A stretch of DNA of 64,000 nt. It comes from Candidatus Latescibacterota bacterium (lineage in GTDB: Bacteria > Latescibacterota > UBA2968 > GCA-2709665). The position numbers and the translations under genes were made by a program. The stretch is taken from the NCBI GenBank assembly GCA_963667175.2, contig CAXXXF010000010.1, positions 1-64,000 of the forward strand, in the 5' to 3' direction. Shown here piece after piece: positions 3,917-49,545 of this stretch. The notes under the pieces were generated by a model, which made no database searches, had not been told where the DNA came from, and saw only the letters and a program-made list of their open reading frames with translations. Position 1 is the stretch's first letter; each line of letters begins with the position of its first letter.

Positions 3917-4094
3917 CAGTCCGTTGAAAAAGTCGCTCCGCAGGCGAGGCCAAGTCACTGTGGCCGAAGACAAGGCGCGCGACCGACGCGAATCCCTGGA
4001 TTCGGGGAGGGAGCGCCTGCCTGCTGCAGGCAGGCAACGCCGTATTTCGGTCACAAGGGCCGCACGCAGCCGGATGGACTGTATCAACGGGCTG
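3917..4094. mobile_element. MITE-A copy 1 (IS5/IS1182-like ends, non-autonomous)
   Basis: Ends CAGTCCGTTGA…TCAACGGGCTG, flanked by ATAA on both sides; near-identical to 22566-22774. Confidence 0.8.
4016..4034. repeat. 19-bp CCTGCCTGC-T-GCAGGCAGG palindrome inserted in MITE-A
   Basis: Perfect palindrome; identical copies at 22695 and 49249. Confidence 0.85.
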
Positions 4095-4264
4095 ATAAGG
4101 ACGAGTTTAAATGCCAGGCCGCTTTCTTCGGTAATAATCACTTCCTCGCCATCAGGAAACTTGCTTATGGAACAAGCGTTTAAAATACTACTACTTGACA
4201 AATCATAACTATTTGCACGATGTTCTATGGTTTTTTAAACTGCCCTATCTTACGTGGGGGGTGC

Positions 4265-5112
4265 ATGTCTTTAGCAATTGTATTTAAAGGAACAGATGGA
4301 ATTGTAATGGCAACAGACAGTCGAATTACTATGACAAGTAGTCAAAAATCGGAGACGTTGAAAGGGAAGTATTTTCTACCTATGACAACACAACGAAACT
4401 TTTCGGCCTCAACCATGACCGTAAATACGGATCGGTTGTGGCTGGTGTTGTCACCTATGGTTTAGGTGCAATTGGATTGGAAAAACCAAGAACAGTTTTC
4501 AGCTATGTGTCTGAATTTGAAAAGATCATTTTTGAAGAAAATGAAATGGGTGACGCCTTCACAATGTCATTGTTGGCGATGGGGCTTAGTTTATTTTTTA
4601 GTACTGAATGGCAAAAGACCGGAATGCCAACGGCTGAGAAATATGAAGGACCAGATATTTATTTTAAGATTGCTGGATTTGACAAGGATGAGCCTTATGG
4701 CAAAGTGTTCGGCTTCTCCATACCTTCCAGTCCTGAACCCGAAGAAGAATTCATAGGAGCAAATTTCGGCGTCATTCCTGGTGGACAAACAGAATTTATG
4801 GAAAGGTTGTTAAACGGCTATGATCCCAATCTACCGTCATATCTTAGAGAATCCGGGATGGATGAGAAAACAAGCGAGACTTTTTCAAAAAACCACATTG
4901 GCAAATTAGCGATTCCCATACCCTATCAGTTCCTTACACTTCAAGATAGTGTTGATTTCTCTGCATTTCTAATAAAAACCACGATGCTGCTGCAATCCCG
5001 GAGTATTGGCATTAGAGGAGTTGGTGGCGCTATTGATATTGCTACCATTACCAAAACCCAGGGGTTTGACTACATATCCAGGAAGCAGATCGTTACTCCA
5101 ACCTTTTCATAG
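4265..5112 (+). CDS. Proteasome beta-subunit-like Ntn hydrolase (about 282 aa once a -1 frameshift near 4344-4348 is corrected)
   Basis: N-terminus MSLAIVFKGTDGIVMATDSR, then TTKLF, AGVVTYG, IAGFD and C-terminal GVGGAIDIATITK. G-rich RBS. Adding one A to the A5 run fuses the two ORFs. AT-rich. Confidence 0.7.
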
Positions 5113-5122
5113 GGGGAATAAC

Positions 5123-5383
5123 ATGGGCCCTTACGAACGTTCAATCGAAATCAAGACGCGCACAGTTTATTTTGGTGAGGAACACTGGCAAAAAAGCAAC
5201 AGAGGGACTCACTTTTCTTGGATATCCTTCAGGTATTCAAATACACTGCTGTCCAAGAACCGTCGAATTCCCAGAGATAAGGTTCGAAAAACGGCTTCAA
5301 ATGGGCGATTTTGGACGGGTTTGACCCAGATAATGAAAACCAGGTTGCCATTGTCTGCGCAATGCTGTCCAAGACCAAAGTGA
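5123..5383 (+). CDS. Small hypothetical protein following the proteasome-like gene (3' part uncertain)
   Basis: AGGGGG RBS overlaps the upstream stop; ATG at 5123. The 3' half runs into the TGCTGTCCAAGA repeats. Confidence 0.3.
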   Translation: MGPYERSIEIKTRTVYFGEEHWQKSNRGTHFSWISFRYSNTLLSKNRRIPRDKVRKTASNGRFWTGLTQIMKTRLPLSAQCCPRPK

Positions 5384-5530
5384 CTATTCCAACGGCCATA
5401 ATTGTGCTGTTTCCGTCTCAATAAGCCAGTGAAATAGGCAATTTGTGAGTCTCAGGCGACCTTGGTCAAGGCATTGCTTCTCGAGAGTGAACCAGATGCT
5501 GTCCAAGACTGAAACCGATTTTTGGACAGG
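5247..5530. repeat. Three units beginning TGCTGTCCAAGA and closed by an imperfect inverted TTGGACRG/TTGGTC
   Basis: 12-mer at 5247, 5363 and 5497; partner inverted motifs at about 5311, 5462 and 5522. Confidence 0.55.
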
Positions 5531-5548
5531 TGTGATTCAAATAAGAAG

Positions 5549-5557
5549 TGGTATAAT
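5549..5557 (+). promoter_or_regulatory. Extended -10 promoter element (TGnTATAAT)
   Basis: Exact TGGTATAAT in an AT-rich intergenic region. Confidence 0.4.
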
Positions 5558-5627
5558 GTTTCCAGAAGACACGAGCACAAAGTAAACGGTCAAGACAAAG
5601 GGAAAATTTCATTGAACTATTCCCGCT

Positions 5628-5670
5628 CACAGCAAAACGGCCCGATCAGAGATCGGGCCGTTTTGCTGTG
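5628..5670. terminator. 20-bp perfect inverted repeat, probable bidirectional terminator
   Basis: CACAGCAAAACGGCCCGATC-AGA-GATCGGGCCGTTTTGCTGTG lies between convergent units. Confidence 0.65.
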
Positions 5671-5764
5671 TAATTCGCTCTACGTTGGCGTTTTGGCAAA
5701 CGCCAACCAAACTACAAAACAGACCATCTCTGTCAAGTGAAATCGTCACCCATCTATCACAAAT

Positions 5765-7597
5765 TCAACCGACTTGTGGACTGCGCCCGGACGGAGTTTC
5801 CGGATGCGGCCAGATCTGGCAGACAACATTTGCCATCCACTTACCGCGCTGTTCGATGTGGTTCTCATCCCAACTATCGGTAGACTCTCTTAACAGCCTA
5901 TTGTTCATAAACAAGTTGTCCGAATGCCCTATTAGTTTACGCTTGAAATGCCATGAACGATTGCTCATACGCTTGTTCAGGCCACCCCTGATCAGGGTCA
6001 AATTGCCTAGCGTTTGGATCATGGCGTCTCGACGTGCACCAACCTCATCATCGTCCTCGTCGAGCAGGTTTGGCCATTCTTCGTCTCGCCAACCAAACGG
6101 CATCAAGTGTTCCACTTCGAGACCATCGGGAACCATCTGCTGCCCAGCGTCTTGCGAAATCAGACTTTCCTCTATGGCTTCCAATACGAGCCGCTGGACG
6201 TGCCGCGGTATCTTGCGTGTCACGACCGCGTGGTGGACATCCACATCGTGTGGCCATCGACTGTTGGCCTGTGTGTATAGCATCAGGCGGTCCCTAATTA
6301 TATTCGCCAGTACGTCGTGATTGTGGTCTTCTTCTGAAATCGACCTCAGTATTTCCAACCCAATTCTATCGTAACTGCGGGCTTGGTGACCGACTACCAA
6401 CCGACGAATCAGAAAACTCTCGAGGTGATTGAAACTCTCGGCACGAACATCATCAGGGCACCCGGATTCTTTAAACCTTCTATTCAGTTCGAAGATCAAA
6501 GGCCACCACGCCCCTACATCAAGCCGAAGCCGCCGATTGTGGAAACGCCGTTCGACGGTAGTCGCCGGCTGGATACGTTGCTCGTATTTCTCAAAATATC
6601 CGGCATCGCTAATGAATTCTTCTCCGACATCCACCAGACGTTCTGAACGCCAGTTTACGAAATTCTGGAATTCTCGAAAGACCCGCCTTACGCCGACCAT
6701 CTCTATCGTCTTCGACTCCAGCCAATAATCTGCAAACACGTCAGATCGAGGACGTTTTTGTGCACCCCGCCCGACCTCTTTCCGCCACCACATCTGATCG
6801 AATGTGTCAAGATATCGGTCGAAGAACGAGTCCTGGTCTACGTCGGGTTCGGCATCGGCCTTGAATAGCATGAAGTTTTTGATCTTGTCCCATTCCGTCA
6901 GAGGTGCGCCGCGGGCGTTCAGCGTTTCAAAGATCTTGTGCTCCTCCTCGTGGGGGTCGAGATAAATCGCCACCACCCTCAAACCGTGGAGGATCGCTCT
7001 CCTCAAGGCAATCGCGAGCACCTCGACAGAACCGTTTTGAACAAAGAACCATTGATTGGCCGATTCACGAAAATACCTGTAGCAGTCACCCATCGGACCT
7101 TTGATGTCCATCTTGTCGGCCGCAGGATTCATCGCTTCGATGAACCCGTCGTAGTGTTCGCTGCCATGAGTGATCTTGAGGTATTCTGGTGAAAACGCGT
7201 TAGTTTGGGGTTCATTCGAAGTCAATCGCACTATCGGTCCGGCTTGATTCGCCAATTCTCGTTCACCCAATTCGTCCGATACGGCTGACATCATCAACTG
7301 CAACGTCGTCAAGCGTTGTTGTCCGTCTATAACTCGCCATTTCTTAGCCTCATCTGGCGTATACCCACTTAGCTTTAGCACCAATGTGCCGAAGAAATGG
7401 GACTCCGTTGGCTCGTTCTCATTCGATTCCTGTTTCTTCACCTGGCTGCACAGGTTCTTCGCGATTTCGGTTACATCTTCCCAGAGAGGAGCCCACTGAT
7501 CTTCCTCGGTCCAAACGTACAGACGCTGGTAGCGCGGCACAACATAGATCAGGCTTCCATTGAATACATCTGAAACTGTGCGGTTCATTGGCTCCAC
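5765..7597 (-). CDS. GmrSD-type (DUF262 + DUF1524/HNH) type IV modification-dependent restriction endonuclease
   Basis: VPRYQRLYVW, IDGQQRLTT, FETLNARG, EVEHLMP and LGNLTL…N motifs. GTG start at 7597 follows GGAGGG. Confidence 0.9.
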   Translation of the reverse strand: MEPMNRTVSDVFNGSLIYVVPRYQRLYVWTEEDQWAPLWEDVTEIAKNLCSQVKKQESNENEPTESHFFGTLVLKLSGYTPDEAKKWRVIDGQQRLTTLQLMMSAVSDELGERELANQAGPIVRLTSNEPQTNAFSPEYLKITHGSEHYDGFIEAMNPAADKMDIKGPMGDCYRYFRESANQWFFVQNGSVEVLAIALRRAILHGLRVVAIYLDPHEEEHKIFETLNARGAPLTEWDKIKNFMLFKADAEPDVDQDSFFDRYLDTFDQMWWRKEVGRGAQKRPRSDVFADYWLESKTIEMVGVRRVFREFQNFVNWRSERLVDVGEEFISDAGYFEKYEQRIQPATTVERRFHNRRLRLDVGAWWPLIFELNRRFKESGCPDDVRAESFNHLESFLIRRLVVGHQARSYDRIGLEILRSISEEDHNHDVLANIIRDRLMLYTQANSRWPHDVDVHHAVVTRKIPRHVQRLVLEAIEESLISQDAGQQMVPDGLEVEHLMPFGWRDEEWPNLLDEDDDEVGARRDAMIQTLGNLTLIRGGLNKRMSNRSWHFKRKLIGHSDNLFMNNRLLRESTDSWDENHIEQRGKWMANVVCQIWPHPETPSGRSPQVG

Positions 7598-8346
7598 GAA
7601 CGCCCTCCAAGAGTATCCAACGAAGTTTTCGCCACGACGTCGGCTCGGCTGTTTGTGAAAAAAGGTAAAACCCGTGTCGCAAATTGCGTCAACGTGCCAA
7701 TATAATAAGATTTCGTTGAATAAATGCTGATAAATGAGATGTTGTTGCTGATTTTTTGATGAAATCCAGTGTTTTTTGCCAATGAGACACGGAATTGCGA
7801 CAGTCGAGGGGATCATCGGGGAACCGGCACCGAGGGAAGGAGCGGCGGCGCTGCATGTTCAGTATACTTCGACAGGCAGGCTTGTAGGGCGGGGACGAAT
7901 GACGAACGCGCACGTTCATCCCATGCCGAAGGAAGTCCTTCGTCTGCCGGACGGTTTTCAGGATGACAGTACGGGTGAACGAGTAGCAGACGGGAGAAGG
8001 AGACGATAGCGACCACGTTTCGTCTGATTCAACAGGAACGGACCTTGCAGACATATTGCGCCTGAGTTCACCGTCATGTGTCAATAATTAAGATTGCAAT
8101 TACATTCTACATGTGGTACCTACATTTCCTACGATCTCTTGAAACGGTTCCAGCAGATGAAACGGGAGAGCATGGCCCTGAATGATGCTGGGGATGTTGT
8201 CCGGCGGTATTTTAGGGTGAGGATGCGGGGGGCGAGCAAGAGCCAGAAAGCGGATCGAAAAATCCCGGCGGTTTCTGAAGAAGCAAGGTGTATCTCAGTA
8301 TCAGGTAGTACCGGTCGTTGGGCCTTTTTGTAGCGAGGAGGTTGAT

Positions 8347-8553
8347 ATGGGCGCCACAAGTGGCGCCAGGAAACTGATCAACCGCATTTTTTGGGGCGAG
8401 CGCCCTGAAGACGGGGTTGAAGAGACGACCGAAGACCGCTTTCTGGCTCAGTCATTGCAGATCGATGAGGATATGCGTACTGGCAAGAGCAGGACGTTAT
8501 CGGTTGAGGAGACCAGGAGAGAGTTGGAAAGGATAAAGAGGGGTGGAACTTGA
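8347..8553 (+). CDS. Small hypothetical protein (antitoxin-like C-terminus)
   Basis: Strong GAGGAGG RBS. The C-terminal EDMRTGKSRTLSVEE resembles addiction-module antitoxin tails. Confidence 0.45.
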   Translation: MGATSGARKLINRIFWGERPEDGVEETTEDRFLAQSLQIDEDMRTGKSRTLSVEETRRELERIKRGGT

Positions 8554-8690
8554 GGAAGCTCGCCGCTGGCGACCCTTCAGTTGTGAAATCGTGCAAGGGC
8601 GAGGGATCGAGTCGGTTGTGGTTGCGGTGACTGAAAGGGAGGGAGAAGAGGTCGGAACCGGTGGGCATGTCGCACCCCCGGTTCGTGTCA

Positions 8691-8879
8691 TCAGCCTTTG
8701 ATAAAAGGAATTATAATTGCGCCAACCACAAGAATGATGATTGCCCATAGCTTGCGGTCGATGCTGATATAGAGTTTTTCCATAAACTCGATGCGCTCGT
8801 TTCCTTGCTCGAATAGGCCTTCTAACTTTGCCAATCGTTCGGCGTGATAGACTTGATAGTCCTGCTGACCGGCAGACAT
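8691..8879 (-). CDS. Small coiled-coil plus single-TM membrane protein
   Basis: ERLAKLE coiled coil followed by hydrophobic LWAIIILVVGAIIIPF. Confidence 0.55.
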   Translation of the reverse strand: MSAGQQDYQVYHAERLAKLEGLFEQGNERIEFMEKLYISIDRKLWAIIILVVGAIIIPFIKG

Positions 8880-8935
8880 AGCGCACCTTCCGGGAAAGAT
8901 ATCTGGTTGTCATTTAACTATCTCTTCGGGAAAAA

Positions 8936-9586
8936 TTATGCCAAAGAGCCACAATTTGTCAAGAGAAAATTCAAAACTTCCTTTACTCCTCCGGTGGATT
9001 CTTTTGCTTTTCCGGTGACTTTCTTGTGGTGGGGAAAGAGATGCTGGACGGGCGTTCGGAACCCGGGCAGTAGGTTCCCGCCGTCAAGGGCGTCATCCGT
9101 TCCCAGCACGTCAACCTTCCGGGTCGAACGGTAGACGTGGACCATTCGCGTTTCGGGTTCCACCAGCCAGACCAGGCGGGTTCCGGCGGCGACGTAATCG
9201 ACAATCCTGGCGTGGACGTCGGCGAGGCGGTCCGACGGCGAAACCACTTCGACTGCCAGATCGGGGGCGAATGGCCAGTAGCCTACGGGGACGCCGGCTT
9301 CGGGAATGCGGTTGCTTGCGACGAAGGCGGCGTCCGGGGCGCGAACGACGTCGGGGTCCCGTTGGAGGATGAATCCGGTTTCGGCCCCGCATGAGACGCC
9401 GAGGTCGTGCGCTTCTACGTACTCGTCGAGCAGGCGCCCAATGCGTGCCCTGACGACGCCGTATTCCGCTCCGTTTGGCCTCTGGCGAATGATCTCTCCC
9501 TTTACAAGCTCACAACGTCCACCGCCGTCCGGCATGTGGAACAGTTCTTCGGCTGTCACGGGAGAAAATGGGGCCAGTACTGCCAT
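8936..9586 (-). CDS. Uma2 (DUF820) family PD-(D/E)XK endonuclease
   Basis: ELVKGEI, RAPDAAFV, APDLAVEVVSP and VWLVEP motifs; AGGAGG RBS. Confidence 0.9.
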   Translation of the reverse strand: MAVLAPFSPVTAEELFHMPDGGGRCELVKGEIIRQRPNGAEYGVVRARIGRLLDEYVEAHDLGVSCGAETGFILQRDPDVVRAPDAAFVASNRIPEAGVPVGYWPFAPDLAVEVVSPSDRLADVHARIVDYVAAGTRLVWLVEPETRMVHVYRSTRKVDVLGTDDALDGGNLLPGFRTPVQHLFPHHKKVTGKAKESTGGVKEVLNFLLTNCGSLA

Positions 9587-9767
9587 CCAGGACCTCCTGC
9601 AGTTTGGAGCACGGCGGGCGCCGCACGATTTCCCGGCGCCTTGACCTCATTCTTGTCCTTGTGTATGCAATACACTACTGTTATTTAGACGTTTATCGTT
9701 AACAGAAACTATACAGAAGTGCAACCAACAGGCCGAATAAAATTCGTAGATTTCTTTTTTTGTACAG

Positions 9768-9824
9768 AAAAAACCCGTTCTCGGTACCCTTCACTCTATT
9801 GAAGGGGAACCTGAAGAGCAGGTT
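9768..9824 (-). terminator. Hairpin plus U-tract downstream of the RelE-like gene
   Basis: CCCTTCA-6nt-TGAAGGG core stem with extended imperfect pairing, followed by TTTTTT on the minus strand. Confidence 0.5.
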
Positions 9825-9836
9825 CAGGACAGAGTC

Positions 9837-10133
9837 CTACTTCATGCGATCTAGACGATCATAAAACTTCTCATGCACGTCTATAAGGATTACCCGACCG
9901 GTTCCCTTGTTTTCTGATTGGATTGCCATCCTGTACGAGTCGTTCAAGCGCACTGCATAAACATCACTGAACCCATCCGCTAACTCCACCCGGCGACCGG
10001 GAGGAAGCTCTCCTTCGTAAAATTCCTTCACAACATCTTCGACGTTCTTTATTACCTGCGGAGGGACCTTCTGTAGATTACGTTTTTGCTTTATGGTCAG
10101 TGGATCAAGTTTAACGGGCAGGTCCAGCAGCAA
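9837..10133 (-). CDS. RelE/ParE-superfamily toxin
   Basis: 98 aa, basic; VYAVRLNDSYRM and C-terminal IDVHEKFY fit the RelE-like fold. Overlaps the upstream gene. Confidence 0.6.
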   Translation of the reverse strand: MLLDLPVKLDPLTIKQKRNLQKVPPQVIKNVEDVVKEFYEGELPPGRRVELADGFSDVYAVRLNDSYRMAIQSENKGTGRVILIDVHEKFYDRLDRMK

Positions 10134-10653
10134 CGGAACACCTCATATTCTTGATAAACTCTTCAGCCGTCTCACATGGTTCTTCCGCTCGAGGTTGCAG
10201 CAGCCCTTCATAGATCCCAATATACCAGCGAAGATCCTGACAAACCGACACAAATTCCCCAAGAGACTCTATAAGACGATCAATAGCCTTCCTCGTCTCA
10301 ACATTCGATGCCATCTCTCCCAACAACTCGTATTTTGGGATATTCTCCTTATTTACATCCTCAAGCTTCCTAAAACCTTCAATAGCCGCTTCCAAATCGC
10401 TGAAAAACGACCCGATTCTCTCAGGCTTCTCTTTAACCCGTTTAAACATCTCCCCATAACACCGACACCAAAGATCAGTCTCCTCGCGCAACTCATCGAT
10501 AACTTTCCGGCTCTGTCTCTCAGCATCAACCCAAATCCGGGATCTCAATTCTCTCTCCGTAAAGAAAGACCCCATAGTATTCGAAACCCACTCCTGCTGA
10601 TTCAGAGGAGAAAATGTGAAAATCGCAGGTAATCCAGATAAAGCCGTCGGCAT
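10111..10653 (-). CDS. Hypothetical acidic helical protein, putative antitoxin partner
   Basis: Directly upstream of and overlapping the RelE-like gene; same AT-rich composition; C-terminal ETAEEFIK. Confidence 0.55.
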   Translation of the reverse strand: MPTALSGLPAIFTFSPLNQQEWVSNTMGSFFTERELRSRIWVDAERQSRKVIDELREETDLWCRCYGEMFKRVKEKPERIGSFFSDLEAAIEGFRKLEDVNKENIPKYELLGEMASNVETRKAIDRLIESLGEFVSVCQDLRWYIGIYEGLLQPRAEEPCETAEEFIKNMRCSVAAGPAR

Positions 10654-10846
10654 AATACCCCCGTCTTAGCTCCCCAAACGCAGTCTACTTCGTAAGCTGT
10701 ACATAAGAAAAGGTACAAAAAAGACAACTAAATGACAATGGCAAATTACCCGCTTGCCAACATCCTTATGCAATCCCCTTTACCCAAGTATCCAATTTCT
10801 GATGGGACCACCCTGCCATACCCCTACCTTGCGACCAGCTTCCATC

Positions 10847-10905
10847 TGTAGGGGCCTGCCTGCAGCGCAGTACGCTGCGCAGGCAGGCGACCCTTGTGGT
10901 CGCCC
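10847..10905. repeat. GTAG-type REP interrupted by a 33-bp CCTGCCTG hairpin (10855-10887)
   Basis: TGTAGGGG|insert|CGACCCTTGTGGTCGCCC; removing the insert gives a REP like the one at 58087. Confidence 0.85.
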
Positions 10906-10991
10906 GCTCTTCGGATGTCTCCGTTTTCCCTTTGTGTCTTTGTGTCTTCGTGTGAGCTGATCTTGGAGGGCTGGGGGAGATGTGGCTCTTT

Positions 10992-12623
10992 CTAAAGCGG
11001 ACAAACGAGTTGCCCGTCCAGCAGCTTGTGGTTTCCGGAATAGTCCACGGGCACGTCGATCAGGTGCACGCCGCCTTCTTTGAGGCAGCCTTTGAGCATG
11101 CCAGCCAGCGCGTCTGTCCGTTCCAGCCGGCGCCCCCCGGCGCCATAGCTCTCGGCGTAGCGCACGAAATCGGGATTTCCGAAATCCAGCCCGAAATCAG
11201 CCAGCCCCATGTGCGCCTGCTTCCATTTGATCATGCCGTAGCCGTCGTCCCGCAGCACCAGCGCCACCAGGTTCAGGCCCAGCCGGACGGCGGTTTCCAG
11301 TTCCTGTGAATTCATCATGAAGCCGCCGTCGCCGCAGACCGCCACCACGTCACGATCGGGATAGAGCAGACTGGCCGCCATGGCGGAAGGCAGACCGGCG
11401 CCCATGGTCGCCAGGGCATTGTCCAGCAGCACCGTGTTCGGCTGGTGGGCGCGGTAATTGAGCGCGAACCAGAGCTTGTAGACGCCGTTGTCGAGGGCGA
11501 TCAGGCCGTCGTCTGGCAGCACGCGTCGGACGTCGGCCACAATCCGTTGCGGGAGGACCGGAAAGCGGTCGTCGTCGTCCCCGGCGGCCAGCTTCCCGTC
11601 CGCCCACGCCTTGACCCGGATGAAGTAGTCGAACGACCAGTGGGACTGCGGCTCGATCTTCCGCCAGATCTGCCACAGGCTGTTGCCGATGTCGCCGATC
11701 ACCTCGAGTTGCGGGAAATAGACGGGGTCCACCTCTGCGGAAGAAAAGTTGACGTGGATAACCTGCAGGCCGTTCTCCCGCATCAGGAAAGGCGGCTTCT
11801 CAACCACGTCGTGACCCACGTTGATGATCAGATCGGCCCTTTCGATGGCGCAATGGATGGCGTCGCCCGAAGACAGCGCCGCGTTTCCGAGATACAGCGG
11901 ATGGCGCTCATCCACAACGCCCTTGCCCATCTGCGTATTGAACCAGGGGATGCCGGTCTTGTCGATGAAACGGGCCAACATGTTCGACGTGCGCTTGCGA
12001 TTCGCGCCGGCCCCCACCAGGAGCAAAGGCCGGCGGGCCTCCTGGATCATGGAAACGGCGCGCGCAATCGCCTTGTCCTCCGCCACGGGCCGCCGCACGC
12101 GGTCCCTGGGAAAAAGGCGCCCCTCCGCCTCTTCCGCGGCGACGTCTTCCGGCAACTCCAGGTGCACGGCGCCCGGCCTTTCCTCCTCCGCCACGCGGAA
12201 CGCTTCCCGCACACGCGGCGGAATGGTCGCGCCGCTGACGATTCGGGTGGTGTACTTCGTTAGCGGGCGCATCATCTCCACCACGTCCACAATCTGGAAA
12301 TGGCCCTGTTTGCTCGACTTGATGGGCTTCTGGCCCGTGATCATCAGCAGCGGCATGCCGCCGAGCTGCGCGTACGCCGCCGCGGTGACGAAATTCGTCG
12401 CCCCGGGCCCGAGCGTGGACAGGCACACCCCGGTCTTTCCTGAGAGGCGGCCGTACGTCGCGGCCATGAAGCCCGCAGCCTGTTCGTGCCGGTTGAGAAT
12501 GACCCTGATGCTCGAGTGGCGCAATGACTCCAGCAGGTCCAGATTCTCCTCGCCGGGGATGGCGAAGATGAACTCCACGCCCTCAGCCTCGAGGGCTTTA
12601 ACGAATAGATCCGAGGCTTTCAT
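10992..12623 (-). CDS. Acetolactate synthase large subunit (ThDP enzyme)
   Basis: MKASDLFVKALE start, RHEQAAGFMA, GPGATN and GDGGFMMN ThDP motif. Confidence 0.9.
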   Translation of the reverse strand: MKASDLFVKALEAEGVEFIFAIPGEENLDLLESLRHSSIRVILNRHEQAAGFMAATYGRLSGKTGVCLSTLGPGATNFVTAAAYAQLGGMPLLMITGQKPIKSSKQGHFQIVDVVEMMRPLTKYTTRIVSGATIPPRVREAFRVAEEERPGAVHLELPEDVAAEEAEGRLFPRDRVRRPVAEDKAIARAVSMIQEARRPLLLVGAGANRKRTSNMLARFIDKTGIPWFNTQMGKGVVDERHPLYLGNAALSSGDAIHCAIERADLIINVGHDVVEKPPFLMRENGLQVIHVNFSSAEVDPVYFPQLEVIGDIGNSLWQIWRKIEPQSHWSFDYFIRVKAWADGKLAAGDDDDRFPVLPQRIVADVRRVLPDDGLIALDNGVYKLWFALNYRAHQPNTVLLDNALATMGAGLPSAMAASLLYPDRDVVAVCGDGGFMMNSQELETAVRLGLNLVALVLRDDGYGMIKWKQAHMGLADFGLDFGNPDFVRYAESYGAGGRRLERTDALAGMLKGCLKEGGVHLIDVPVDYSGNHKLLDGQLVCPL

Positions 12624-12785
12624 GGTATCAACTCTCGCGGCAATACGTCTGATTTCCTTTGTTTTTTCGCTGACAAAAATCCGGAAGACGGAGAGCGCGA
12701 GATGGCCACCCAAAACGCCTTCGAGTTCCGCTTTGTCCCGCTTTCGTTCCCAATAGATGAAATGCCCCCTGGGGTCACGCGTATT

Positions 12786-12846
12786 CGAGGGCAGGACCTG
12801 CCTGCAGCGCAGGGCACTGCGCAGGCAGGTGCCCTCGTTCCCAGGG
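12786..12846. repeat. CGAGGGCA..TGCCCTCGTTCCCAGG palindrome interrupted by a 33-bp CCTGCCTG hairpin (12797-12829)
   Basis: Empty version in reverse orientation at 49197-49225; insertion lies between A and T. Confidence 0.8.
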
Positions 12847-12860
12847 AAGAACGCCGTTCG

Positions 12861-13749
12861 TCAGTCGAGGCGGTCCAGAAACTCGTCCAGCCATTCGTCG
12901 GGACCGCCGTGCCCGGCGAAACCCGTCGCCACGTCCTCATCGGTGTGACAGTCGGACCCGCCGGTGGAGAACAGCCCGTGGCGCTCGCAATACTCGCGGT
13001 ACTTCCCCGTAAACTCGGGCGGCACGCCCGGATGGGCGCATTCGATCCCGTCCAGGGAGCACTCCAGGCGCAACGCATCCATCCGTTCCACGCTGTCTTT
13101 CCTGAAATAGCCGAACGGATGCGCGATCGCCACCAGCGCGCCCGCCTCCTTCACGGCCCGGCATCACGTCCTTTACGTGGGGATACGATGGAAATCGTGT
13201 TGCGGAACCCGCTCGCGACATCAGGTCCCCGAAGTCCTCGATCCGGTCGATGAACCCGCGATCCACGCAGTACTGCTGGATCACGCCACCCTTCACGTGG
13301 GTATTTCCCTGCAACTCGATCGTCTTCGACGGTCTGTACGACTTCAACAGTTCGAGACGGTCGCCATCGGAGAAATCCAATCCGAGCGCCTGCAGGCCTT
13401 TCGAAATCGCCGCTCCGTAGTCCCGCTGCCAGTCGTGATACGCGCCGAGAACCTGCACCATCGCCTCCGGCAGTTCCGCCGGAAAGCCGTAACAAAGCAG
13501 ATCCACCGATCCAATCGACGTGGTCATCGTCAGCTCAGCCGACGGCACGACGCGAATCTCCGGACAGCCCTGAGCGATCTCCAGCACCTCCGGCAGAGAA
13601 TCCAGAACGTGGTGGTCCGTCACGGCGAAGCAATCGACGTCGAGTTCCCGGGCGCGCTTGAAATGGCTTTGCGGCTGCGCCAGGGCGTCGTAGCTCCAGT
13701 ACGTGTGCAGATGAAGATCGTAGCGTGCGGTCTTCTGTGTGTCGGTCAT
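12861..13749 (-). CDS. PHP-domain phosphoesterase (apparent +1 frameshift near 13158)
   Basis: DLHLHT, TDHH, AHP and GGSDCH motifs are split over two ORFs; removing one base gives …VMPAVKEAGALVAIAHP. Confidence 0.8.
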
Positions 13750-22565: not shown

Positions 22566-22774
22566 CAGTCCGTTGAAAAAGTCGCTCCGCAGGCGAGGCC
22601 GAGCCATTGTGGCCGAAGACAAGGCGCGCCTGTCTGCGTGCGGACACGCACAGGCAGGCGACCGACGCGAATCCCTGGATTCGGGGAGGGAGCGCCTGCC
22701 TGCTGCAGGCAGGCAACGCCGTAGTTCGGTCACAAGGGCCGGACGTAACCCGGATGGACTATTTCAACGGGCTG
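22566..22774. mobile_element. MITE-A copy 2, carrying two nested hairpins (22629-22658, 22695-22713)
   Basis: Same TIRs as copy 1. TTAG on both sides, with the left TTAG containing the upstream gene's stop codon. Confidence 0.85.
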
Positions 22775-37746: not shown

Positions 37747-38032
37747 CAGTCCGTTGGAAAAGTCGCTCTGCAGGCGAGGCATGGTGTCCCGTCCCGGAAA
37801 TATGTCACCATTCATCCGCCGATCCATCCCGTCTGGCGGCGTTGCCTTCGCTCGGTGACCTTGGACAGGTCGCCTCGCTCAGGCGTCTTGCCAGCCGGGC
37901 GACTCGGCGGTCGAATTTCGGTAATCTATTTCCGGGACAGAACACTTGCCATTGTGGCCGAAGACAAGGCGCGCCTGTCTGCGTGCGGACACGCACAGGC
38001 AGGCAGACCGGATGGACGTTTTCAACGGGCTG
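37747..38032. mobile_element. MITE-A copy 3, containing nested MITE-B and a 30-bp hairpin (37974-38003)
   Basis: Same termini as copies 1 and 2; TTAA on the left, TTTAA on the right. Confidence 0.8.
37784..37945. mobile_element. MITE-B (162 bp) with 19-bp imperfect TIRs
   Basis: GTGTCCCGTCCCGGAAATA … TATTTCCGGGACAGAACAC; absent from MITE-A copies 1 and 2. Confidence 0.7.
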
Positions 38033-39770: not shown

Positions 39771-39795
39771 GTTCGGATCGGCGGACGCGCCGCTC

Positions 39796-40566: not shown

Positions 40567-40931
40567 CTCTCCCCCCTCAAGGTATTTCCTCTTTCAACGG
40601 TAAAAGCGATTAGAATCACAACGTATATCTATCGTGTTACGGATCGGTTACGTGAAGGTTGTGAATCTGTGACCTGTGGAGACGAACCGACGACGAGGCG
40701 TGGTTCCTTCAATGCATTTCGACTTCGCAACTCGCTTCTTCGTTCCAAAAATCCGACGTTGAGTCTGAAAGCGGACGAGGCGAAGCATTCCGGGCGCCGG
40801 CCGACGAAGAGCAGATCCTCGGAACCTGCCCCCGGCTTATTTTCGTTTTAATTGACGGCCCTCGACCTTATACTTCTAACACTATACCTGTACCAATACC
40901 TGGCATCGATGATTATCCGGAGGCGAAGGCC

Positions 40932-44011
<3,080 letters not shown>

Positions 44012-44091
44012 ATTGCGGCCGGTAACCTGCACAGACGGCAAACACCTGTTCACGATCGGGGTCGAACAGGCCAGGGAGGATCCTGTTTGCG

Positions 44092-45843
44092 ATGGCAAAG
44101 AGAATATCTCGCAGGAATGGACCGACCCGGGACAACGAATCCGCCGGCGTCGCGGAAATCTGTAAGGCGGCGCGCGAGGGCGACGTGGACCGCGTCCGGT
44201 CCATCCTGGAGAAGAAACCCGAGCTTGCGCGTCGGGACGGTCCACAGGGCTATCAGGCCATCCACCTTGCGGCGAGGGAGGGGCGCCTGGAGGTGGTCAG
44301 GCTGCTCCTGGCGGCCGGGGCCAGCCCGACCCGGATGACCTACCGGGAGCGCGTGTCGGCGATTGAGATGGCCCGGCGCCACGGACATGCCGAAGTGGCC
44401 GACGTGATGGAGGCGTGGCGGTCCCGGCACTCGGGAGAGACGGAATCGGGAATCCTCCTTTGCCAGGCCGCCGGCAGGCGGGACGTCGATGCGATGCGGG
44501 AACTGCTTGACGCCGACCCGCCCGGGATACACTCGGTCGACAGGAGCGGGGATACGGCGCTCCATGTGGCCGTGGAGAACCACCACGTGGACGGGGTCGT
44601 AGAGTTGCTGGATCGAGGCGCCGACCCGAATCGGGCGAACGCGCGCGGGAAGAAGCCCATCCACCTTGCGCTCGGACCGCGGCCCAAACGCGGATGGGAC
44701 CCGCCGCCGAGCCCCCTGTGGCCGGTAATCGGCGGAATTCTGCTGGGACACGGCGCCGAATACGACCTGTGGATTGCCTGCGCCATCGGCGACGTCGACG
44801 GGGCGCGGAGGATCCTGGATGCCGATCCAGATTCCGTGAACGACTGGGCCCGGAACTATCCCGGGATGGACGCGTATCCGATCTCGATTGCCGCCGACAA
44901 GGGACACCGCGAGGTGGTGCGCCTCCTCCTGGAACGGGGCGCCGATCCGGACACGCCGTATGACAAGCACGAAGGATACCCCGTGGCCGAGCGAGGCGCG
45001 CCATTGCACGCGGCGGCCCTCAACGACGATCTGGAGATGGCAACGCTGCTGCTGGAACACGGGGCATCGGCGCATACCGTAATGGATGCATCCGGCAACG
45101 CCCTGAACTGGGCGATCGCGAACGGGAACGACGCGTTGGAAAAACTGCTCTTGCGACATGGTGCGTTCCCAGGGTTCGACGACGAGGCATCTCCTGGATT
45201 CTACGCCGCGAACAGCGATAATATCTCCGTCGACGCCGCGCTCGTCAACTCCGATCCATCGTGTGCGAAGGAGGTCCTGAAGGGCGCCGTCCATGGCGGG
45301 CATCCGGACCTCGTGGCAGTCTGCCTCTCGCAGAATCCGGATTTTTCCGAGCCCGAAATGCACGACGTGATGTGCCTGGCCATGCGCATGTGGCGGCTGC
45401 GGTGCCCGGGCAATCCTGGAGGTGCCCGGGCCGAGCACTTCTACACCTGCTTCGAGCTTCTCCTGGATCACGGATTCGACCCGAACGCCCGCGAGAAGAA
45501 GGACGGCCTCACGCCGCTACACTGGACCGCGGAGATCACCTGGCACGTCAGTGAGCAGGATCGAATCGTGTTCGCGGAAAAGCTGATCGACCGCGGCGCG
45601 GAGCTGAACGTGCTGGGCGGAGAAAGACGATCGTCGCCGCTCGCAATGGCGGTGCGTTTCGAGTGGCCCGAACTCGCCGGGTTCATGCTGGAGAAGGGCG
45701 CCGACCCGAATCTGGCGGGCGCCCCCTGGGCGACGCCTCTGGCCTGGAGCGAAAACCCGCAGGGCTACAAAGAATATGCTCGACTCGACACGGAGATAAC
45801 AGACCTGGGCGCACTGCTCAGGCGATACGGCGCGAAGGAATAG
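44092..45843 (+). CDS. Ankyrin repeat protein
   Basis: Many G.T(A/P)LH.A…LL..GADPN units. Confidence 0.92.
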   Translation: MAKRISRRNGPTRDNESAGVAEICKAAREGDVDRVRSILEKKPELARRDGPQGYQAIHLAAREGRLEVVRLLLAAGASPTRMTYRERVSAIEMARRHGHAEVADVMEAWRSRHSGETESGILLCQAAGRRDVDAMRELLDADPPGIHSVDRSGDTALHVAVENHHVDGVVELLDRGADPNRANARGKKPIHLALGPRPKRGWDPPPSPLWPVIGGILLGHGAEYDLWIACAIGDVDGARRILDADPDSVNDWARNYPGMDAYPISIAADKGHREVVRLLLERGADPDTPYDKHEGYPVAERGAPLHAAALNDDLEMATLLLEHGASAHTVMDASGNALNWAIANGNDALEKLLLRHGAFPGFDDEASPGFYAANSDNISVDAALVNSDPSCAKEVLKGAVHGGHPDLVAVCLSQNPDFSEPEMHDVMCLAMRMWRLRCPGNPGGARAEHFYTCFELLLDHGFDPNAREKKDGLTPLHWTAEITWHVSEQDRIVFAEKLIDRGAELNVLGGERRSSPLAMAVRFEWPELAGFMLEKGADPNLAGAPWATPLAWSENPQGYKEYARLDTEITDLGALLRRYGAKE

Positions 45844-45897
45844 ACCGGAGCCGGCGGACACGCAGTCGTCGGCCGAATAGAGCGAAAGGATTAACGC

Positions 45898-46707
45898 ATG
45901 ATCTACCAGCTCAGGATCACCATGCAGGACATCAAGCCGCCGATATGGCGCCGCGTCCTCGTTGACGGCGAGAGTTCGCTGGGCGACCTCCATTTGATTT
46001 TTCAAATCGCGATGGGGTGGACAAATTCCCATCTCCACGAGTTTCGCATCGGCAACTCCCGCTACGGAACGTGCGACCCGGCGTTGGACGATTTCGACGA
46101 AGACGTGCAGGACGAAGATCTGATCACGCTCGAGCAGGCGGCGCCGTTCGTCGGCGTTGAGTTTCTCTACGAATACGATTTCGGAGACAGCTGGGTTCAT
46201 CTGGTGAAAGTCGAGGCAATCACCGAACCCGAGTCGAAAGCGTTCAAGCCCGCGTGTCTCGCGGGTGAGCGGTCGTGTCCGCCCGAGAACGTCGGCGGAA
46301 TCACGGGATACGCGGAATTCCTGGAGGCCCTGGCGGACGGCGACCATCCGGAGTATTCCTCGATCATCGAATGGATTGGCGGCGAATTCGACCCTGAGCA
46401 CTACCCGATCGCCCTTGTCAATGAAATCCTCTCCCGATTCGAATTGGACGCGCTCTTCGATACCATGGAGGAGGTCTCCTATACCTATCGGCAGGGACAA
46501 TACCTTTCGTACATCCATTACTACACGAAGGTGAACGGCATCCCGCCGGCCCATGCCGACATTCAGCGCTACTTTGGCGTCACGCCGCCAACCGTAAACA
46601 GCATGCTCAAACGACTGGATGAGGCGGGCCTTATCGCGAGAATCCCTCGTCAGGCTCGCTCGATAAGGGTTCTCCTGCACCCGGAGGACATTCCGGAACT
46701 GGATTAG
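45898..46707 (+). CDS. pRiA4b ORF-3 family protein fused to a LexA/MarR-like winged HTH
   Basis: PPIWRR, LH..FQIAMGW…HLHEF, YEYDFGDSW and CPPE..GG motifs, then RQGQYL.YI…PP..ADIQRYF.VTPPTV. Confidence 0.85.
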   Translation: MIYQLRITMQDIKPPIWRRVLVDGESSLGDLHLIFQIAMGWTNSHLHEFRIGNSRYGTCDPALDDFDEDVQDEDLITLEQAAPFVGVEFLYEYDFGDSWVHLVKVEAITEPESKAFKPACLAGERSCPPENVGGITGYAEFLEALADGDHPEYSSIIEWIGGEFDPEHYPIALVNEILSRFELDALFDTMEEVSYTYRQGQYLSYIHYYTKVNGIPPAHADIQRYFGVTPPTVNSMLKRLDEAGLIARIPRQARSIRVLLHPEDIPELD

Positions 46708-46759
46708 CGTCGAGCAGCTGACGAACACATTCTGCAATTGAGAATCGGGATAATGATCG

Positions 46760-47596
46760 ATGACGACGCTCAGCGGGATAGACGTCGAAGCGTTCCGTGA
46801 ACTGGGGTACCACGTGGCGCGGGGCGTATTCGGGCGGGATGAGATCGCACGACTGCGCGAGGGTTACGACTACATCCTCGACCTGGCGACCAGGACGGAC
46901 CTGCCGGATGAAGTCCTCAACGGCAGACGGCGCGACGTGCATATTCACCTGCAGACACCCCGCCCGATGGCCGGCCCGGACGCGGTACGATATCTGCGCA
47001 AGGTCCAATGGCCCGCGCTGATTCATCCGGCGTTCGAGGAGATCCGCAACAGTCCGAATTTTCCCGCACTCCTGGCGCCGCTGATCGGCACGACGTTGAA
47101 GCAGTTTATCAATCAGATCAACTTCAAGATGCCGGGCGGGAACATCGAATTCCCGTGGCACCAGGACGTCCGTCCCACGCCCGCGTTTCGCGATCAGGTA
47201 AACAATTACGTGCAGACGATCGTCGTGGTGGACGAGGCGACCGTCGCGAGCGGATGTCTGTACGTCGTCCCGGGCAGCCATAAGCTGGGAAACCTGAAGG
47301 TGAAACGGTACGCGAAAGGAAGCGTCGAGTCGCAATTGGACGTCTCCTCCGCGGCGCCCTGCGAGGCCCTGCCGGGCGACGTGCTGATGTTCACGTCGTA
47401 CACGGTCCACGGATCGTCGCCGAATATGACGGACCGGCCCCGGAGATCGTACATCAACGGATTCGTCCGCGCATCCGCTTGCGACGTAGGGCGATGGGCG
47501 TTCCTGGACGGGAAGCCCGTGCCCATCACGAGCGACTACGACCACCACGCGATACGGTACAGACCAACAACTGCTACAGGAGGAAGGGCACGTTGA
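46760..47596 (+). CDS. Phytanoyl-CoA dioxygenase (PhyH) family Fe(II)/2OG enzyme
   Basis: PWHQD, GCLYVVPGSH and HGSSPN…RR motifs. Confidence 0.9.
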   Translation: MTTLSGIDVEAFRELGYHVARGVFGRDEIARLREGYDYILDLATRTDLPDEVLNGRRRDVHIHLQTPRPMAGPDAVRYLRKVQWPALIHPAFEEIRNSPNFPALLAPLIGTTLKQFINQINFKMPGGNIEFPWHQDVRPTPAFRDQVNNYVQTIVVVDEATVASGCLYVVPGSHKLGNLKVKRYAKGSVESQLDVSSAAPCEALPGDVLMFTSYTVHGSSPNMTDRPRRSYINGFVRASACDVGRWAFLDGKPVPITSDYDHHAIRYRPTTATGGRAR

Positions 47597-47600
47597 AGAG

Positions 47601-48344
47601 ATGCAAAGCCACGATTTCGACCGATTGACACGACGTCTGGAGGCGCTGGATCTGGTGGATATGGAGATGGAGACGGCCGGATACGCGGACGACTATCCCA
47701 TCTATTGCATCCGATTGGGCGGCGACCCGGCTGGCAGGAAACGGGTGCTTCTCTCCGGCGGAGTCCACGGTGACGAACCTGCGGGACCGGAGTCGGTCCT
47801 TGCATTCCTCGAGCGAGATCCGGTAGACCTGCTGGAGGATTTCGTATTCCTGATTCTGCCGTGTGTCAATCCCTGGGGGTACGTCAATAACAAGCGGGAA
47901 AACAGCAGGGGTCAGGATATCAACCGATCGTTCTCCGAGTCCGGTGTTTCCGAAGGCGAAATCGGCCGGCGAACGTTGAAGGGAGAGCGGTTCGACCTTT
48001 ACGTGGATCTTCACGAAGACTGGGAGGCCGCCGGTTTCTACATGTACGAAGTCAGGCGCGATGGACAATACGCGGGGCCGGACGTCGTTCGCAAGGTCGA
48101 GAAGGTGGGCCCCATCGATCCGGATTCAGAGGACGACAATGACATCCCGGTTTCCCGCGGAGTCTACAAAGTCGATCCCGCGTGGGGGATCGGCGGGATC
48201 GTCCCGTACGTATATCATTATCATGCGGACCACGCGCTCATCTTCGAGACGCCCACGGGCTGGCCGATGGCGCAGCGAACCGCGGCGCATCTCGCCGGCC
48301 TCGATTCCGTCCTCGAATGGACCCTCGACAATCCCGCCGGCTGA
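47601..48344 (+). CDS. M14 family metallocarboxypeptidase (succinylglutamate desuccinylase-like)
   Basis: GGVHGDEPAG, NPWG…REN..GQDINR, DLHED and FETP motifs. Confidence 0.88.
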   Translation: MQSHDFDRLTRRLEALDLVDMEMETAGYADDYPIYCIRLGGDPAGRKRVLLSGGVHGDEPAGPESVLAFLERDPVDLLEDFVFLILPCVNPWGYVNNKRENSRGQDINRSFSESGVSEGEIGRRTLKGERFDLYVDLHEDWEAAGFYMYEVRRDGQYAGPDVVRKVEKVGPIDPDSEDDNDIPVSRGVYKVDPAWGIGGIVPYVYHYHADHALIFETPTGWPMAQRTAAHLAGLDSVLEWTLDNPAG

Positions 48345-48377
48345 TGCCGATCCCTCGCAATTGCCCTCGATGATCCC

Positions 48378-49094
48378 ATGTCCGACCGCACGCCCACGTG
48401 GATCTTCTTCGACTGCTTCAATACCCTTCTCGATGATTTCGACGAAACCGGAGACGAGTCCGGATTGAGTTCGATTCTCGACCTGCCGGTCCGGGAGGGA
48501 TACTTCGCCACAACGCACGACTTCGTGAACGCGTATTCGCGCTGGCGGCACAACCGGTTGACCGGCGAATCGCGGGAGGTGTTGCTTGCGGATCGTCTGA
48601 CTGAGGTGCTCGCGGCTTCGGGAAAGACCGGTCGAGTGTCCGTACACCGGCTCGTTCAGGAAATGGTCGATGAATTCGAGAGGTCCTATCCGAAGCAGGT
48701 CCGTCGAACCCCGGGCGTCGCGGGCATGCTGGCGTCGTGGCGCGGCAGGGTTCGAATGGGCGTCGTCTCGAATTTCTACCTGACCGGTTGGCCGGAGCGA
48801 CTCCTGGCGGCTCACGGACTGTCGCGTTATTTCGAATTCGTCATCGACAGCGCGGCGATCGGATTCAGAAAACCGGGTTCTGAAATCTATCGCGAAGCCC
48901 TCCGCCAGGCCGGCCTCAGTGTTGACCAGGCAGGCGACGTCCTGTTCATCGGGGACAATCTGCGCAACGACGTTTTGGCACCGAAGTCGACGGGCATGGA
49001 CGCGATCTTTTTCGATCGGTCTCACGACCGGCCTACGGCGAACCCCCAGACCTGGCCTGACTCGATCACCCGCTGGGACGAATTCAGGCCGTGA
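48378..49094 (+). CDS. HAD family hydrolase
   Basis: FDCFNTL, VVSN, RKP and IGDN..ND motifs. Confidence 0.88.
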   Translation: MSDRTPTWIFFDCFNTLLDDFDETGDESGLSSILDLPVREGYFATTHDFVNAYSRWRHNRLTGESREVLLADRLTEVLAASGKTGRVSVHRLVQEMVDEFERSYPKQVRRTPGVAGMLASWRGRVRMGVVSNFYLTGWPERLLAAHGLSRYFEFVIDSAAIGFRKPGSEIYREALRQAGLSVDQAGDVLFIGDNLRNDVLAPKSTGMDAIFFDRSHDRPTANPQTWPDSITRWDEFRP

Positions 49095-49096
49095 GC

Positions 49097-49545
49097 AGGG
49101 GCAGGTTTGAAACCTGCCCCTACGATAATCAAAGACGCGATGAATTGATTTCGTCAGCCGATTGCGGCCGATGGCTGATCCCCGTCTTCTGCCTCACCTG
49201 GGAACGAGGGCATCTTGCCCTCGTTGGCTTTGATTTGACCTGTAGGGGCCTGCCTGCTGCAGGCAGGCAATCCTTGTGGTTGCCCGCCTTCCCCTTCGTC
49301 ATTTCAATCGGGCGGTTCCCGAACCGCCCCTACAAGAAACAGGCGTCCGGGAATTCGTGCCGCCGGTCCCAATCGCAAACGGTATTGGCAGACGGTTGAT
49401 AGCTGACGCCAGGTTTTCCTCCCCCTTTCCCCCCGGGAGAGGGGGCCTGCCTGCCGAGCAGAACTCGGCGCAGGCAGGCCGGGGGGAGAGGTTTGCGGGG
49501 CGGAGGGTGGTCCGCTGACGGCTGAGAGCCGACCGCTGATCGCTG
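49097..49545. repeat. Composite intergenic cluster of several palindromic and short-period repeat families, including CCTGCCTG hairpins at 49249-49267 and 49446-49478
   Basis: REPs at 49097, 49241 and 49310; palindrome at 49197; CCCC..GGGAGAGGGG element at about 49420-49491; GCTGA heptamer-like tracts. Confidence 0.8.

Follow-up and report, generated by a model that had tools for sequence, protein, structure and literature searches.

The window analysed here, i.e. the first 64 kb (64,000 nucleotides) of contig 10 of the genome of Candidatus Latescibacterota bacterium GCA_963667175.2, raises the question of how short hairpins of 19 to 33 bp, which all begin with CCTG and end with CAGG, have come to lie inside other repeats, and what has placed them there. 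The answer at which we arrive, with a probability of roughly 0.6, is that they are copies of a minimal mobile palindromic DNA element, which is mobilised in trans and recognised by its structure. The reading of the copies as a mobile element is well supported; the class of enzyme that an earlier, sequence-only reading of the window had proposed for it (an HUH enzyme of the RAYT or IS200 kind) is not supported; and the evidence on a targeting of repeats is divided.

The pattern CCTGYCTG-N(1-20)-CAGRCAGG has eight matches in the window and none in any of 100 dinucleotide-preserving shuffles. These are the eight copies that the sequence-only reading had described, all of them found at their positions, and their flanks read as it had claimed: the junction is G|C in seven copies and A|T in one, at 12797.

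Boundaries, target and fold of the unit

When the genome of the window (G000; 5.52 Mb in 18 contigs) is searched with the hairpin pattern, as had been suggested, 269 copies are found with a spacer of 1-30 and 274 with a spacer of 0-60, while the reversed control pattern finds none. Each copy was then excised in silico at CCTG…CAGG, and a paralog was accepted as strictly empty with at most one mismatch per 12-nt flank and identical bases at the joint; such paralogs exist for 136 of the 274 copies, i.e. for 36 of the 115 flank contexts (24 of the 91 single contexts). The junctions of these 36 contexts are G|C (21), A|T (5), G|T (5), C|C (2), G|A (1), G|G (1) and A|C (1). A cut at G|C is ambiguous: its position may shift by one base, and the junction can also be taken for a 2-bp GC repeat on either side of CTG…CAG. 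Both alternatives fail in the five A|T contexts, and therefore the unit is CCTG…CAGG, without a target-site duplication. A gammaproteobacterial genome, G044, agrees: two copies of an insertion sequence (IS), about 99% alike outside two gaps, with about a dozen substitutions, differ by exactly two 19-mers, located at GCAGCA|CGTAG and CTCAA|TCAGAG (i.e. at A|C and A|T), and strict empties are found for 37 of its 227 contexts, with junctions that include A|T (11), G|C (7), C|G (5), A|C (5) and G|T (4). The unit enters DNA whole, exactly at its CCTG and CAGG ends, neither duplicating nor deleting target bases, as the sequence-only reading had concluded from the A|T copy; it also enters copies of itself, which results in nesting.

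Entry is usually between a purine and a pyrimidine. The tabulation of the flanking dinucleotides, another of the checks that had been suggested, gives a fraction of purine|pyrimidine flanks per context of 0.77 in this genome, 0.71 in G044, 0.56 in viral contigs and 0.42 in other genomes, the background being 0.23-0.25. G is located at position -1 in 49 and C at position +1 in 51 of the 62 oriented contexts of the window genome, i.e. both flanks are equally constrained, and in the same contexts no base is fixed beyond -1/+1 and no flanking tetranucleotide is conserved.

The core of the unit is a 9-bp inverted repeat, CCTGYCTGC…GCAGRCAGG, and the 19- and 20-mers consist of the two 9-nt arms and one or two variable central bases (T, A, C, G or CG). 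The length classes of the genome are 19 (51 copies), 20 (15), 28 (32), 30 (22) and 33 (67), next to longer nested forms. The forms of 28, 30 and 33 bp have a 7-bp outer stem, a 2-nt GC bulge, an inner stem of 5-6 bp and a loop of 2-5 nt: the 33-mers read CCTGCCT-GC-(6-bp stem)-(5-nt loop)-(6-bp stem)-AGGCAGG, and the 28- and 30-mers read CCTGTCT-GC-GTGCG-(AA or GACA)-CGCAC-AGGCAGG. For the units as single-stranded DNA, the folding energy is -8 to -14.5 kcal/mol (z -2.6 to -4.4). In an alignment of 20 distinct 33-mers, hand-picked and hand-oriented from 31 oriented forms (an orientation by fold that biases the test toward structure), 93.8% of the cells are paired, both sides have changed in 5 of 13 pairs and none of 500 shuffles is equal; with slid partners, pairing is 23-47%. 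Nearly all copies of the eight inner-hairpin strings that were tested lie within the CCTG shell, the exception being 1 of the 17 copies of the shortest string; the variable inner stem-loop of the 28-33 bp forms is a growth within this lineage.

The unit codes for nothing, and its short forms can arise from its long ones: judging from the strings, the 19-mers of one host position (slot 2, below) are derivable from a 33-mer by the loss of 14 nt, and 19-mers more generally by deletions of 13-14 nt at 2-nt repeats. That derivation, together with the make-up of the unit from two inverted 9-mers and a variable centre, would also suit a scar, i.e. the terminal inverted repeats that remain as an empty shell when a larger DDE-type transposon or miniature inverted-repeat transposable element (MITE) is excised imprecisely or suffers an internal deletion. 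We consider this very improbable: the window genome holds no larger repeated element bounded by the 9-mers (33 orphan pairs against 24.6 expected, with no enclosed segment repeated), the units have no flanking target duplication, identical 33-mers with conserved, covarying interiors occur in many unrelated contexts, and copies nest in one another.

Hosts, relatives and distant carriers

The hosts of the eight window copies (Table 1) are a MITE, here called MITE-A, with a full length of about 180-210 bp and present in the window as two full copies and one deleted copy, and several shorter repeats, among them repetitive extragenic palindromes (REPs).

Table 1. Hairpin copies and host repeats in the window, in order of position.
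Feature	Position	Strand	Host or remark
MITE-A copy 1, inverted ends CAGTCCGTTGA…TCAACGGGCTG	3917-4094	+	slot 1 unfilled
19-mer hairpin CCTGCCTGC-T-GCAGGCAGG	4016-4034	.	slot 2 of MITE-A copy 1
33-mer hairpin in GTAGGGG REP	10855-10887	- (canonical reading: GC bulge on 5' side)	host 10848-10854 and 10888-10905
Host CGAGGGCA palindrome carrying 33-mer	12786-12837		
33-mer hairpin in palindrome CGAGGGCAGGA|TGCCCTCG	12797-12829	-	host 12786-12796 and 12830-12837; A|T junction
MITE-A copy 2	22566-22774	+	slots 1 and 2 both occupied
30-mer hairpin CCTGTCT GC GTGCG GACA CGCAC AGGCAGG	22629-22658	+	slot 1 of MITE-A copy 2
19-mer hairpin	22695-22713	.	slot 2 of MITE-A copy 2
30-mer hairpin at internal-deletion junction of MITE-A remnant	37974-38003	+	remnant ends at 38032
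Uninterrupted CGAGGGCA-TCT-TGCCCTCG palindrome	49205-49223	.	arms are those of host 12786-12837, loop differs
19-mer hairpin in GTAGGGG REP	49249-49267	.	host 49242-49248 and 49268-49285
33-mer hairpin between GGGAGAGGGGG and CCGGGGGGAGAGG	49446-49478	-	GGGAGAGGGGG element host, about 49435-49491

Slot 1 of MITE-A copy 1, at 3978|3979, reads AAGGCGCG|CGACC and is an empty site, as had been claimed. Across the genome, slot 1 is empty in 51 cases and filled in 13 (8 with the 30-mer, 5 nested); slot 2 is empty in 26 and holds a 19-mer(T) in 25, a 19-mer(C) in 13 and a 33-mer in 3; and slot 3 is empty in 68 and holds a 28-mer in 24. Once MITE-A is oriented, each slot holds its hairpin in a single orientation, and so the copies in the slots have been inherited with the MITE; many present copies have indeed been multiplied passively, through the copying of a host MITE, REP or IS. 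In the MITE-A remnant that ends at 38032, the left flank of slot 1 is fused to the right flank of slot 3 across the 30-mer, and slot flanks are likewise joined across a hairpin in context clusters 7 and 9, which suggests deletions between hairpins.

The stretch 49197-49225 had been taken as the uninterrupted form of the host at 12786; the arms are the same, but the loop is TCT rather than GGA, and the exact empty form, CGAGGGCAGGATGCCCTCG, is found elsewhere in the genome and at the orthologous site of relatives. An empty paralog of the REP that hosts the copy at 49249 is located at C1:10992-11027 of the same genome, and the copy at 49446 belongs to context cluster 2, in which 14 copies are filled and one member has up to 36 empty-like paralogs. 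Two further features of the window were noted. The G+C content of 4001-8000 is 0.48, against about 0.60 elsewhere, and this part may be an acquired island. Rfam matches to parts of a group II intron lie on the minus strand (D1-D4 at 43349-43486, domains 5/6 at 42755-42901), only about 730 nt from each other, which suggests an intron that is degraded or devoid of an open reading frame (ORF).

That the copies sit mostly in other repeats, as the sequence-only reading had described for the window, is supported. After the removal of self matches, 233 of the 274 copies and 77 of the 115 contexts have repeated surroundings; the corresponding counts are 167 of 1500 for positions drawn at random and 290 of 1500 for random positions outside coding sequence. 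Its statement that the unit parasitises other palindromes fares less well: in G044, where 120 of 227 contexts are repeated and random non-coding positions give 437 of 1000, the excess is small, the MITE-A copies are inherited, and tolerance and hitchhiking may account for much of the location in repeats. A host stem of at least 6 bp flanks 12 of 120 copies in other phyla, against 3.25% of controls, which is a minor effect.

The claim that no copy lies in coding sequence is true of the window and fails for the genome. With crude gene calls (coding fraction 0.82), 56 of the 274 copies fall inside ORFs, mostly near their ends, and in-frame copies of 30, 33 and 54 nt occur in repeated genes, i.e. 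a Mutator-family (IS256-type) transposase, a DDE_Tnp_1_4 transposase, a 12-copy ORF without a Pfam match and a fused N6-methylase/specificity gene.

The comparison of filled and empty alleles in relatives (81-92% identical in the flanking genes), which had likewise been suggested, found orthologous sites that are empty, filled and doubly filled. At the site of 12797, the host palindrome is empty (CGAGGGCAGGATGCCCTCG) in G011, G014, G003 and G010 and absent in G012, G006, G002 and G013, while G009 has the same 33-mer with a second 33-mer nested at AGCG|CAG. At the site of 10855, the REP is empty in G012 and G006, with the downstream sequence conserved, and in G009 it is filled with the 33-mer, which carries a nested insert identical to that at the 12797 ortholog. 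Another syntenic palindrome is filled in G007 and empty in G013. The orthologs thus form a series of no host palindrome, empty host, filled host, and filled host with nesting; empty states occur in G012, the closest relative by flanking-gene identity.

Independent assemblies were available as Logan contigs, rather than raw reads, of four runs, those listed first being labelled sponge metagenome. In run X20, one contig passes from 12781 to 12830 through ATTCGAGGGCAGGA, i.e. it holds the empty allele of the 12797 site, and contigs of runs X1 and X19 reach into the 10855 and 12797 hairpins. In three runs, contigs skip 3913-4094, joining 3912 to 4095 with 3-4 shared letters at the joint, and MITE-A copy 1 is hence polymorphic.

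Within the genus, copy numbers range from 0 to 292 per genome (G000 292, G009 258, G011 106, G007 89, G013 66); bursts of 248 and 164 copies are also seen in two sister genera, and one of 133 copies in a genome of the next family, and most of the remaining families have 0-4. In three genomes of the same phylum (G130, G047 and G053), the reversed control pattern, GGACRGAC…GTCYGTCC, is matched 55, 9 and 9 times, which hints at another palindromic repeat family.

More widely, a scan of one genome per species gave at least 120 stretches with the 19/20-mer core. Among the matches listed are Patescibacteria, Bacteroidota (including isolates), Omnitrophota, Gammaproteobacteria, Planctomycetota, Acidobacteriota and others, many of them at 32-45% G+C, and the 20-mer CCTGCCTGCCGGCAGGCAGG makes up 50 of the matches among the 80 loci that were read. 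The carriers that were counted have 681, 248, 8, 2 and 3 copies per genome. Viral contigs gave 114 stretches, with at least 6 in one contig of 29.5 kb. The similar 20-mers that the sequence-only reading had mentioned in other genomes are therefore real and widespread, and an identical core across phyla and viral contigs points to an element that travels horizontally or to a very widespread enzyme. A look for an orthologous empty site in Flagellimonas yielded none, as the insertion is also present in the closest relative and the spacers of the others are unalignable. The literature search, which covered the main texts of papers, matched none to the exact 19- or 20-mer strings, and on small mobile palindromes it retrieved only work on small dispersed repeats (SDRs), HIP1 and REPINs.

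The 681 copies are those of G044, of whose 3.66 Mb the detailed analysis covered 2.8 Mb, with 460 copies, 418 of them 19-mers. Its IS-like ORFs are riddled with hairpins, and the reading frame is open once the hairpins are removed in silico. The idea of a mini-intron, removed at the level of RNA, was dropped: the hairpins in restorable ORFs sit in IS-like genes or near ORF ends, with no clear case of a single-copy gene. Separately, a five-gene cluster at G044:C1 ~2,520,000-2,530,000 matches contigs C11, C12 and C16 of G000 at 64-84% protein identity, above the level of the ribosomal proteins, which suggests a cross-phylum transfer; the look of nitrogen assimilation that it has comes from first residues only.

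Two candidate-phyla genomes have the 20-mer at a matching position (…GGT(T)AGA|GC…) of a tRNA-like 5' fragment (L046 4041-4060; L078 2127-2146), with an intact tRNA gene 30 and 260 nt downstream of the fragment. An insertion into the working tRNA genes of these bacteria was rejected, as the hairpins are in the fragments next to the intact genes.

Conservation of the sequence across phyla, and the position of some copies just downstream of genes, might be expected of a functional site under selection, such as a protein operator or an RNA hairpin, and a short palindrome might also be an artefact of sequencing or assembly. Either explanation is hardly credible: copies disrupt IS genes and vary in presence among paralogs as well as orthologs, no gene family is repeatedly met around 120 copies, no Rfam family is found at the copies tested (the LOOT RNA motif was set aside for the same reason), and units are present at orthologous sites of separately assembled species, in isolates and in complete chromosomes.

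What may move the unit

In the mechanism that we infer for the mobile element, an enzyme supplied in trans would recognise the folded hairpin or cruciform, in which the two ends of the unit lie adjacent at the base of the stem; there, the same enzyme would break and rejoin the DNA, cutting out or pasting in the unit without a stagger. Action in trans is proposed because no protein family recurs around copies and no larger element carries these ends: in stretches of 1.6-8 kb around 120 copies from other genomes, the best ORF cluster is found at 9 of 120 loci. This supports the action in trans that the sequence-only reading had proposed.

Several candidates were followed. The window genome has seven IS110-family DEDD transposase domain matches of equal score (C2:257678, C2:259328, C4:83802, C4:341883, C6:444547, C9:15763 and C14:379838), five with a short internal tandem repeat and two without; IS110 was rejected as the driver, or as a seeker of the hairpins, since the seven identical copies have unrelated, AT-richer flanks. 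A 548-aa ORF without a Pfam match (G000:C11:38500-40300, ORF 94-1740), with at least 8 full copies here and 11 in G007, is probably the transposase of an undescribed IS; it was rejected as the driver, for its spread among 41 relatives does not track hairpin load. PF04986 (IS91/Y2) has no match in the window genome and likewise none in any control genome, TnpB has one locus in the window genome, and the integron integrase model TIGR02249 is above cut-off in none of five high-copy genomes. The top 70 proteins shared between the window genome and the 2.8 Mb of G044 include no nuclease or transposase candidate; the best of them, by first residues only, look like housekeeping proteins, a nitrogen-assimilation cluster and type I restriction-modification genes.

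The earlier proposal, a REP-like single-strand hairpin moved by an HUH Y1 transposase (RAYT or IS200/IS605 TnpA) encoded elsewhere in the genome, is in our judgement unlikely. It would account for the lack of a target duplication and for a bulged hairpin of REP size; the window genome has three weak Y1_Tnp loci, and a gene of the type found on contig C3, with repeats on both sides, is present in G000, G007, G009, G011 and G013, i.e. in five of the six highest-copy members of the genus. Hairpin load and Y1 genes go together to that extent, and they part elsewhere: G044 (681 copies) and G042 have no PF01797 match, G024 (133 copies) has Y1 fragments with stops only, and G006 (139 copies) has none, though its assembly is in 100 contigs, while the Y1-rich G017 and G020 (32 and 5 matches) have no copies (strict pattern) and 3 copies (loose pattern), respectively. 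Furthermore, the C3 gene is flanked by CGAGGGCA-GGGA-TGCCCTCG palindromes and the RAYT-like genes of contig C7 by GTAGGGG…CCCCTAC REPs, rather than by CCTG hairpins; neither flank of the unit holds a fixed tetranucleotide, both being equally constrained; and orientation relative to GC skew is 60:49 overall (p 0.34) and 18:13 in single contexts, i.e. without a strand bias. In REPIN work (PMC3116915), the REP doublet is the mobile unit and no excision of a singlet was found. The HUH mechanism of the sequence-only reading is not borne out, and the enzyme probably belongs outside the classical RAYT/IS200 Y1 transposases.

The RAYT-like genes merit a description of their own. The gene on C3 (weak Y1_Tnp match, 201 aa; G000:C3:191305-194526, ORF 1201-1806) has its flanking palindromes in inverted pairs about 100 nt apart and, together with them, looks like a REPIN/RAYT unit. 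Two others, at G000:C7:59585-59755 and 62956-63120, are located 3.4 kb apart, each beside its REPs. Frames of 1200-1440 aa with a Y1_Tnp-like stretch occur at G011:C2:164316, G011:C2:170050, G007:C1:1912863, G009:C1:4547970 and G016:C1:3072165, those of G007, G009 and G011 being some 10-15 kb away from the C3-type gene.

A number of points weigh against a structure-recognised element mobilised in trans, beginning with the C3-type gene in five of the six top genus members and the fold-biased choice of the aligned 33-mers. The searches made found no enzyme for the unit, which leaves its mechanism as inference only. The direction of change, insertion rather than precise deletion, would follow from parsimony on an unrooted tree, and the contigs of the four runs, taken without raw reads, caught no insertion or excision as it happened. 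Lastly, flank microhomology of at least 3 nt on both sides is found in 12.6% of context pairs with the same element and in 0.9% of those with different elements, an excess that could reflect hidden host homology or hint at templated copying.

The microhomology would fit an origin without transposition, in which template switching or break repair copies the units in and gene conversion spreads them among repeats; so would the location of most copies within repeated DNA, and the identical nested insert that both orthologous 33-mers of G009 carry at an identical inner position. This origin is nevertheless very improbable: in 87% of the same-element context pairs fewer than 3 nt are shared on both sides, more than 100 unrelated contexts as well as other phyla show identical boundaries, and the units would be too short for conversion of the RecA type.

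We therefore keep to the mobile element acted on in trans, and add an extension of it that we offer tentatively, as a possibility we rather doubt: the 19-20-bp palindrome CCTGCCTGC(N1-2)GCAGGCAGG might be a pan-bacterial micro-transposon and the smallest mobile DNA known, on which a near-universal or highly mobile enzyme would act at the base of the extruded hairpin, and which would cross phyla, partly on phages, burst to hundreds of copies, riddle selfish DNA and evolve structured derivatives of 28-33 bp.

If the units move as they appear to, 19 bp would suffice for a mobile element, which is below the size of REPs, REPINs and MITEs and at or below that of SDRs. Hundreds of natural insertion sites are resolved to the base, which is rare for REP-like repeats, and they set a biochemical target, namely the activity that would cut at purine|pyrimidine and join in a hairpin without a stagger. 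The core that Latescibacterota, Gammaproteobacteria, Bacteroidota isolates, candidate-phyla bacteria and viral contigs share could mean the horizontal spread of a non-coding 20-mer or a very widespread enzyme; the isolate records among the matches mean that cultured carriers exist and can be tested at the bench. The units also have a practical effect that matters to annotators, as they break assemblies, frameshift or lengthen genes and mediate deletions between copies.

Comparison with known systems

Short GC-rich hairpins that invade other sequence, including genes and sometimes in frame, are known as the mobile GC clusters and 'byp' hairpins of yeast mitochondria and as the palindromic elements of Rickettsia; these differ from the units described here in genome, size and sequence. 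The integron attC site has a conserved outer inverted repeat, a variable inner part and extrahelical bases, and recombines as a folded strand; the units differ from it in lacking the GTTRRRY core, with CCTG and CAGG at their ends, and in the result for the integrase given above. The MITEs of DDE transposons share the inverted ends, whereas the units show no duplication at A|T, A|C and C|G junctions and, in the window genome, have no parent element with these ends.

Elements of the IS110/IS1111 group, which are 1.2-1.5 kb long and code for both an enzyme and a guide RNA, enter REPs, attC sites and transposon ends and make no duplication there; the seven IS110 copies of this genome have unrelated flanks. 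IS200/IS605 elements and their short derivatives that bear palindromes make no target duplication and depend on hairpins and single-strand chemistry; they insert 3' of a fixed target of 4-5 nt and are oriented with replication. The units are like them in having no target-site duplication, and unlike them in having neither a fixed one-sided target nor a replication-linked orientation.

REPs are imperfect palindromes of 20-40 nt, high in copy, mostly extragenic and limited to lineages, and are thought to move as folded single strands. The 274 copies of 19-33 nt seen here, mostly between genes, resemble them in this; they differ in lacking a head of the GTAG type, with ends of CCTG and CAGG and variable flanks, and no RAYT here is flanked by them, the high-copy G044 being without a Y1 match. 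They differ from REPINs as well, which move as doublets (PMC3116915), whereas single hairpins insert here, at sites that are resolved to the base.

The units also resemble the SDRs: they are below 35 nt, insert precisely into other repeats, nest in themselves and have a shared fold with compensatory change. The repeats SDR1-8 of Nostoc and its relatives were reportedly described by Elhai and colleagues in 2008 as being 21-27 nt long, and are said to be self-nesting and to share a secondary structure with compensatory changes. To our knowledge, SDRs have no known enzyme and are confined to one cyanobacterial group. In one case, SDR5 sits between the third and fourth base of HIP1 (PMC4390886). 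The units described here differ from SDRs in being apparently another sequence, whose core is identical in many phyla and in viral contigs, and in their form, a perfect or bulged palindrome whose inverted ends are defined and whose target is purine|pyrimidine. Among the systems described in print, the cyanobacterial SDRs and the REPINs are the closest, with the SDRs probably alike in kind only.

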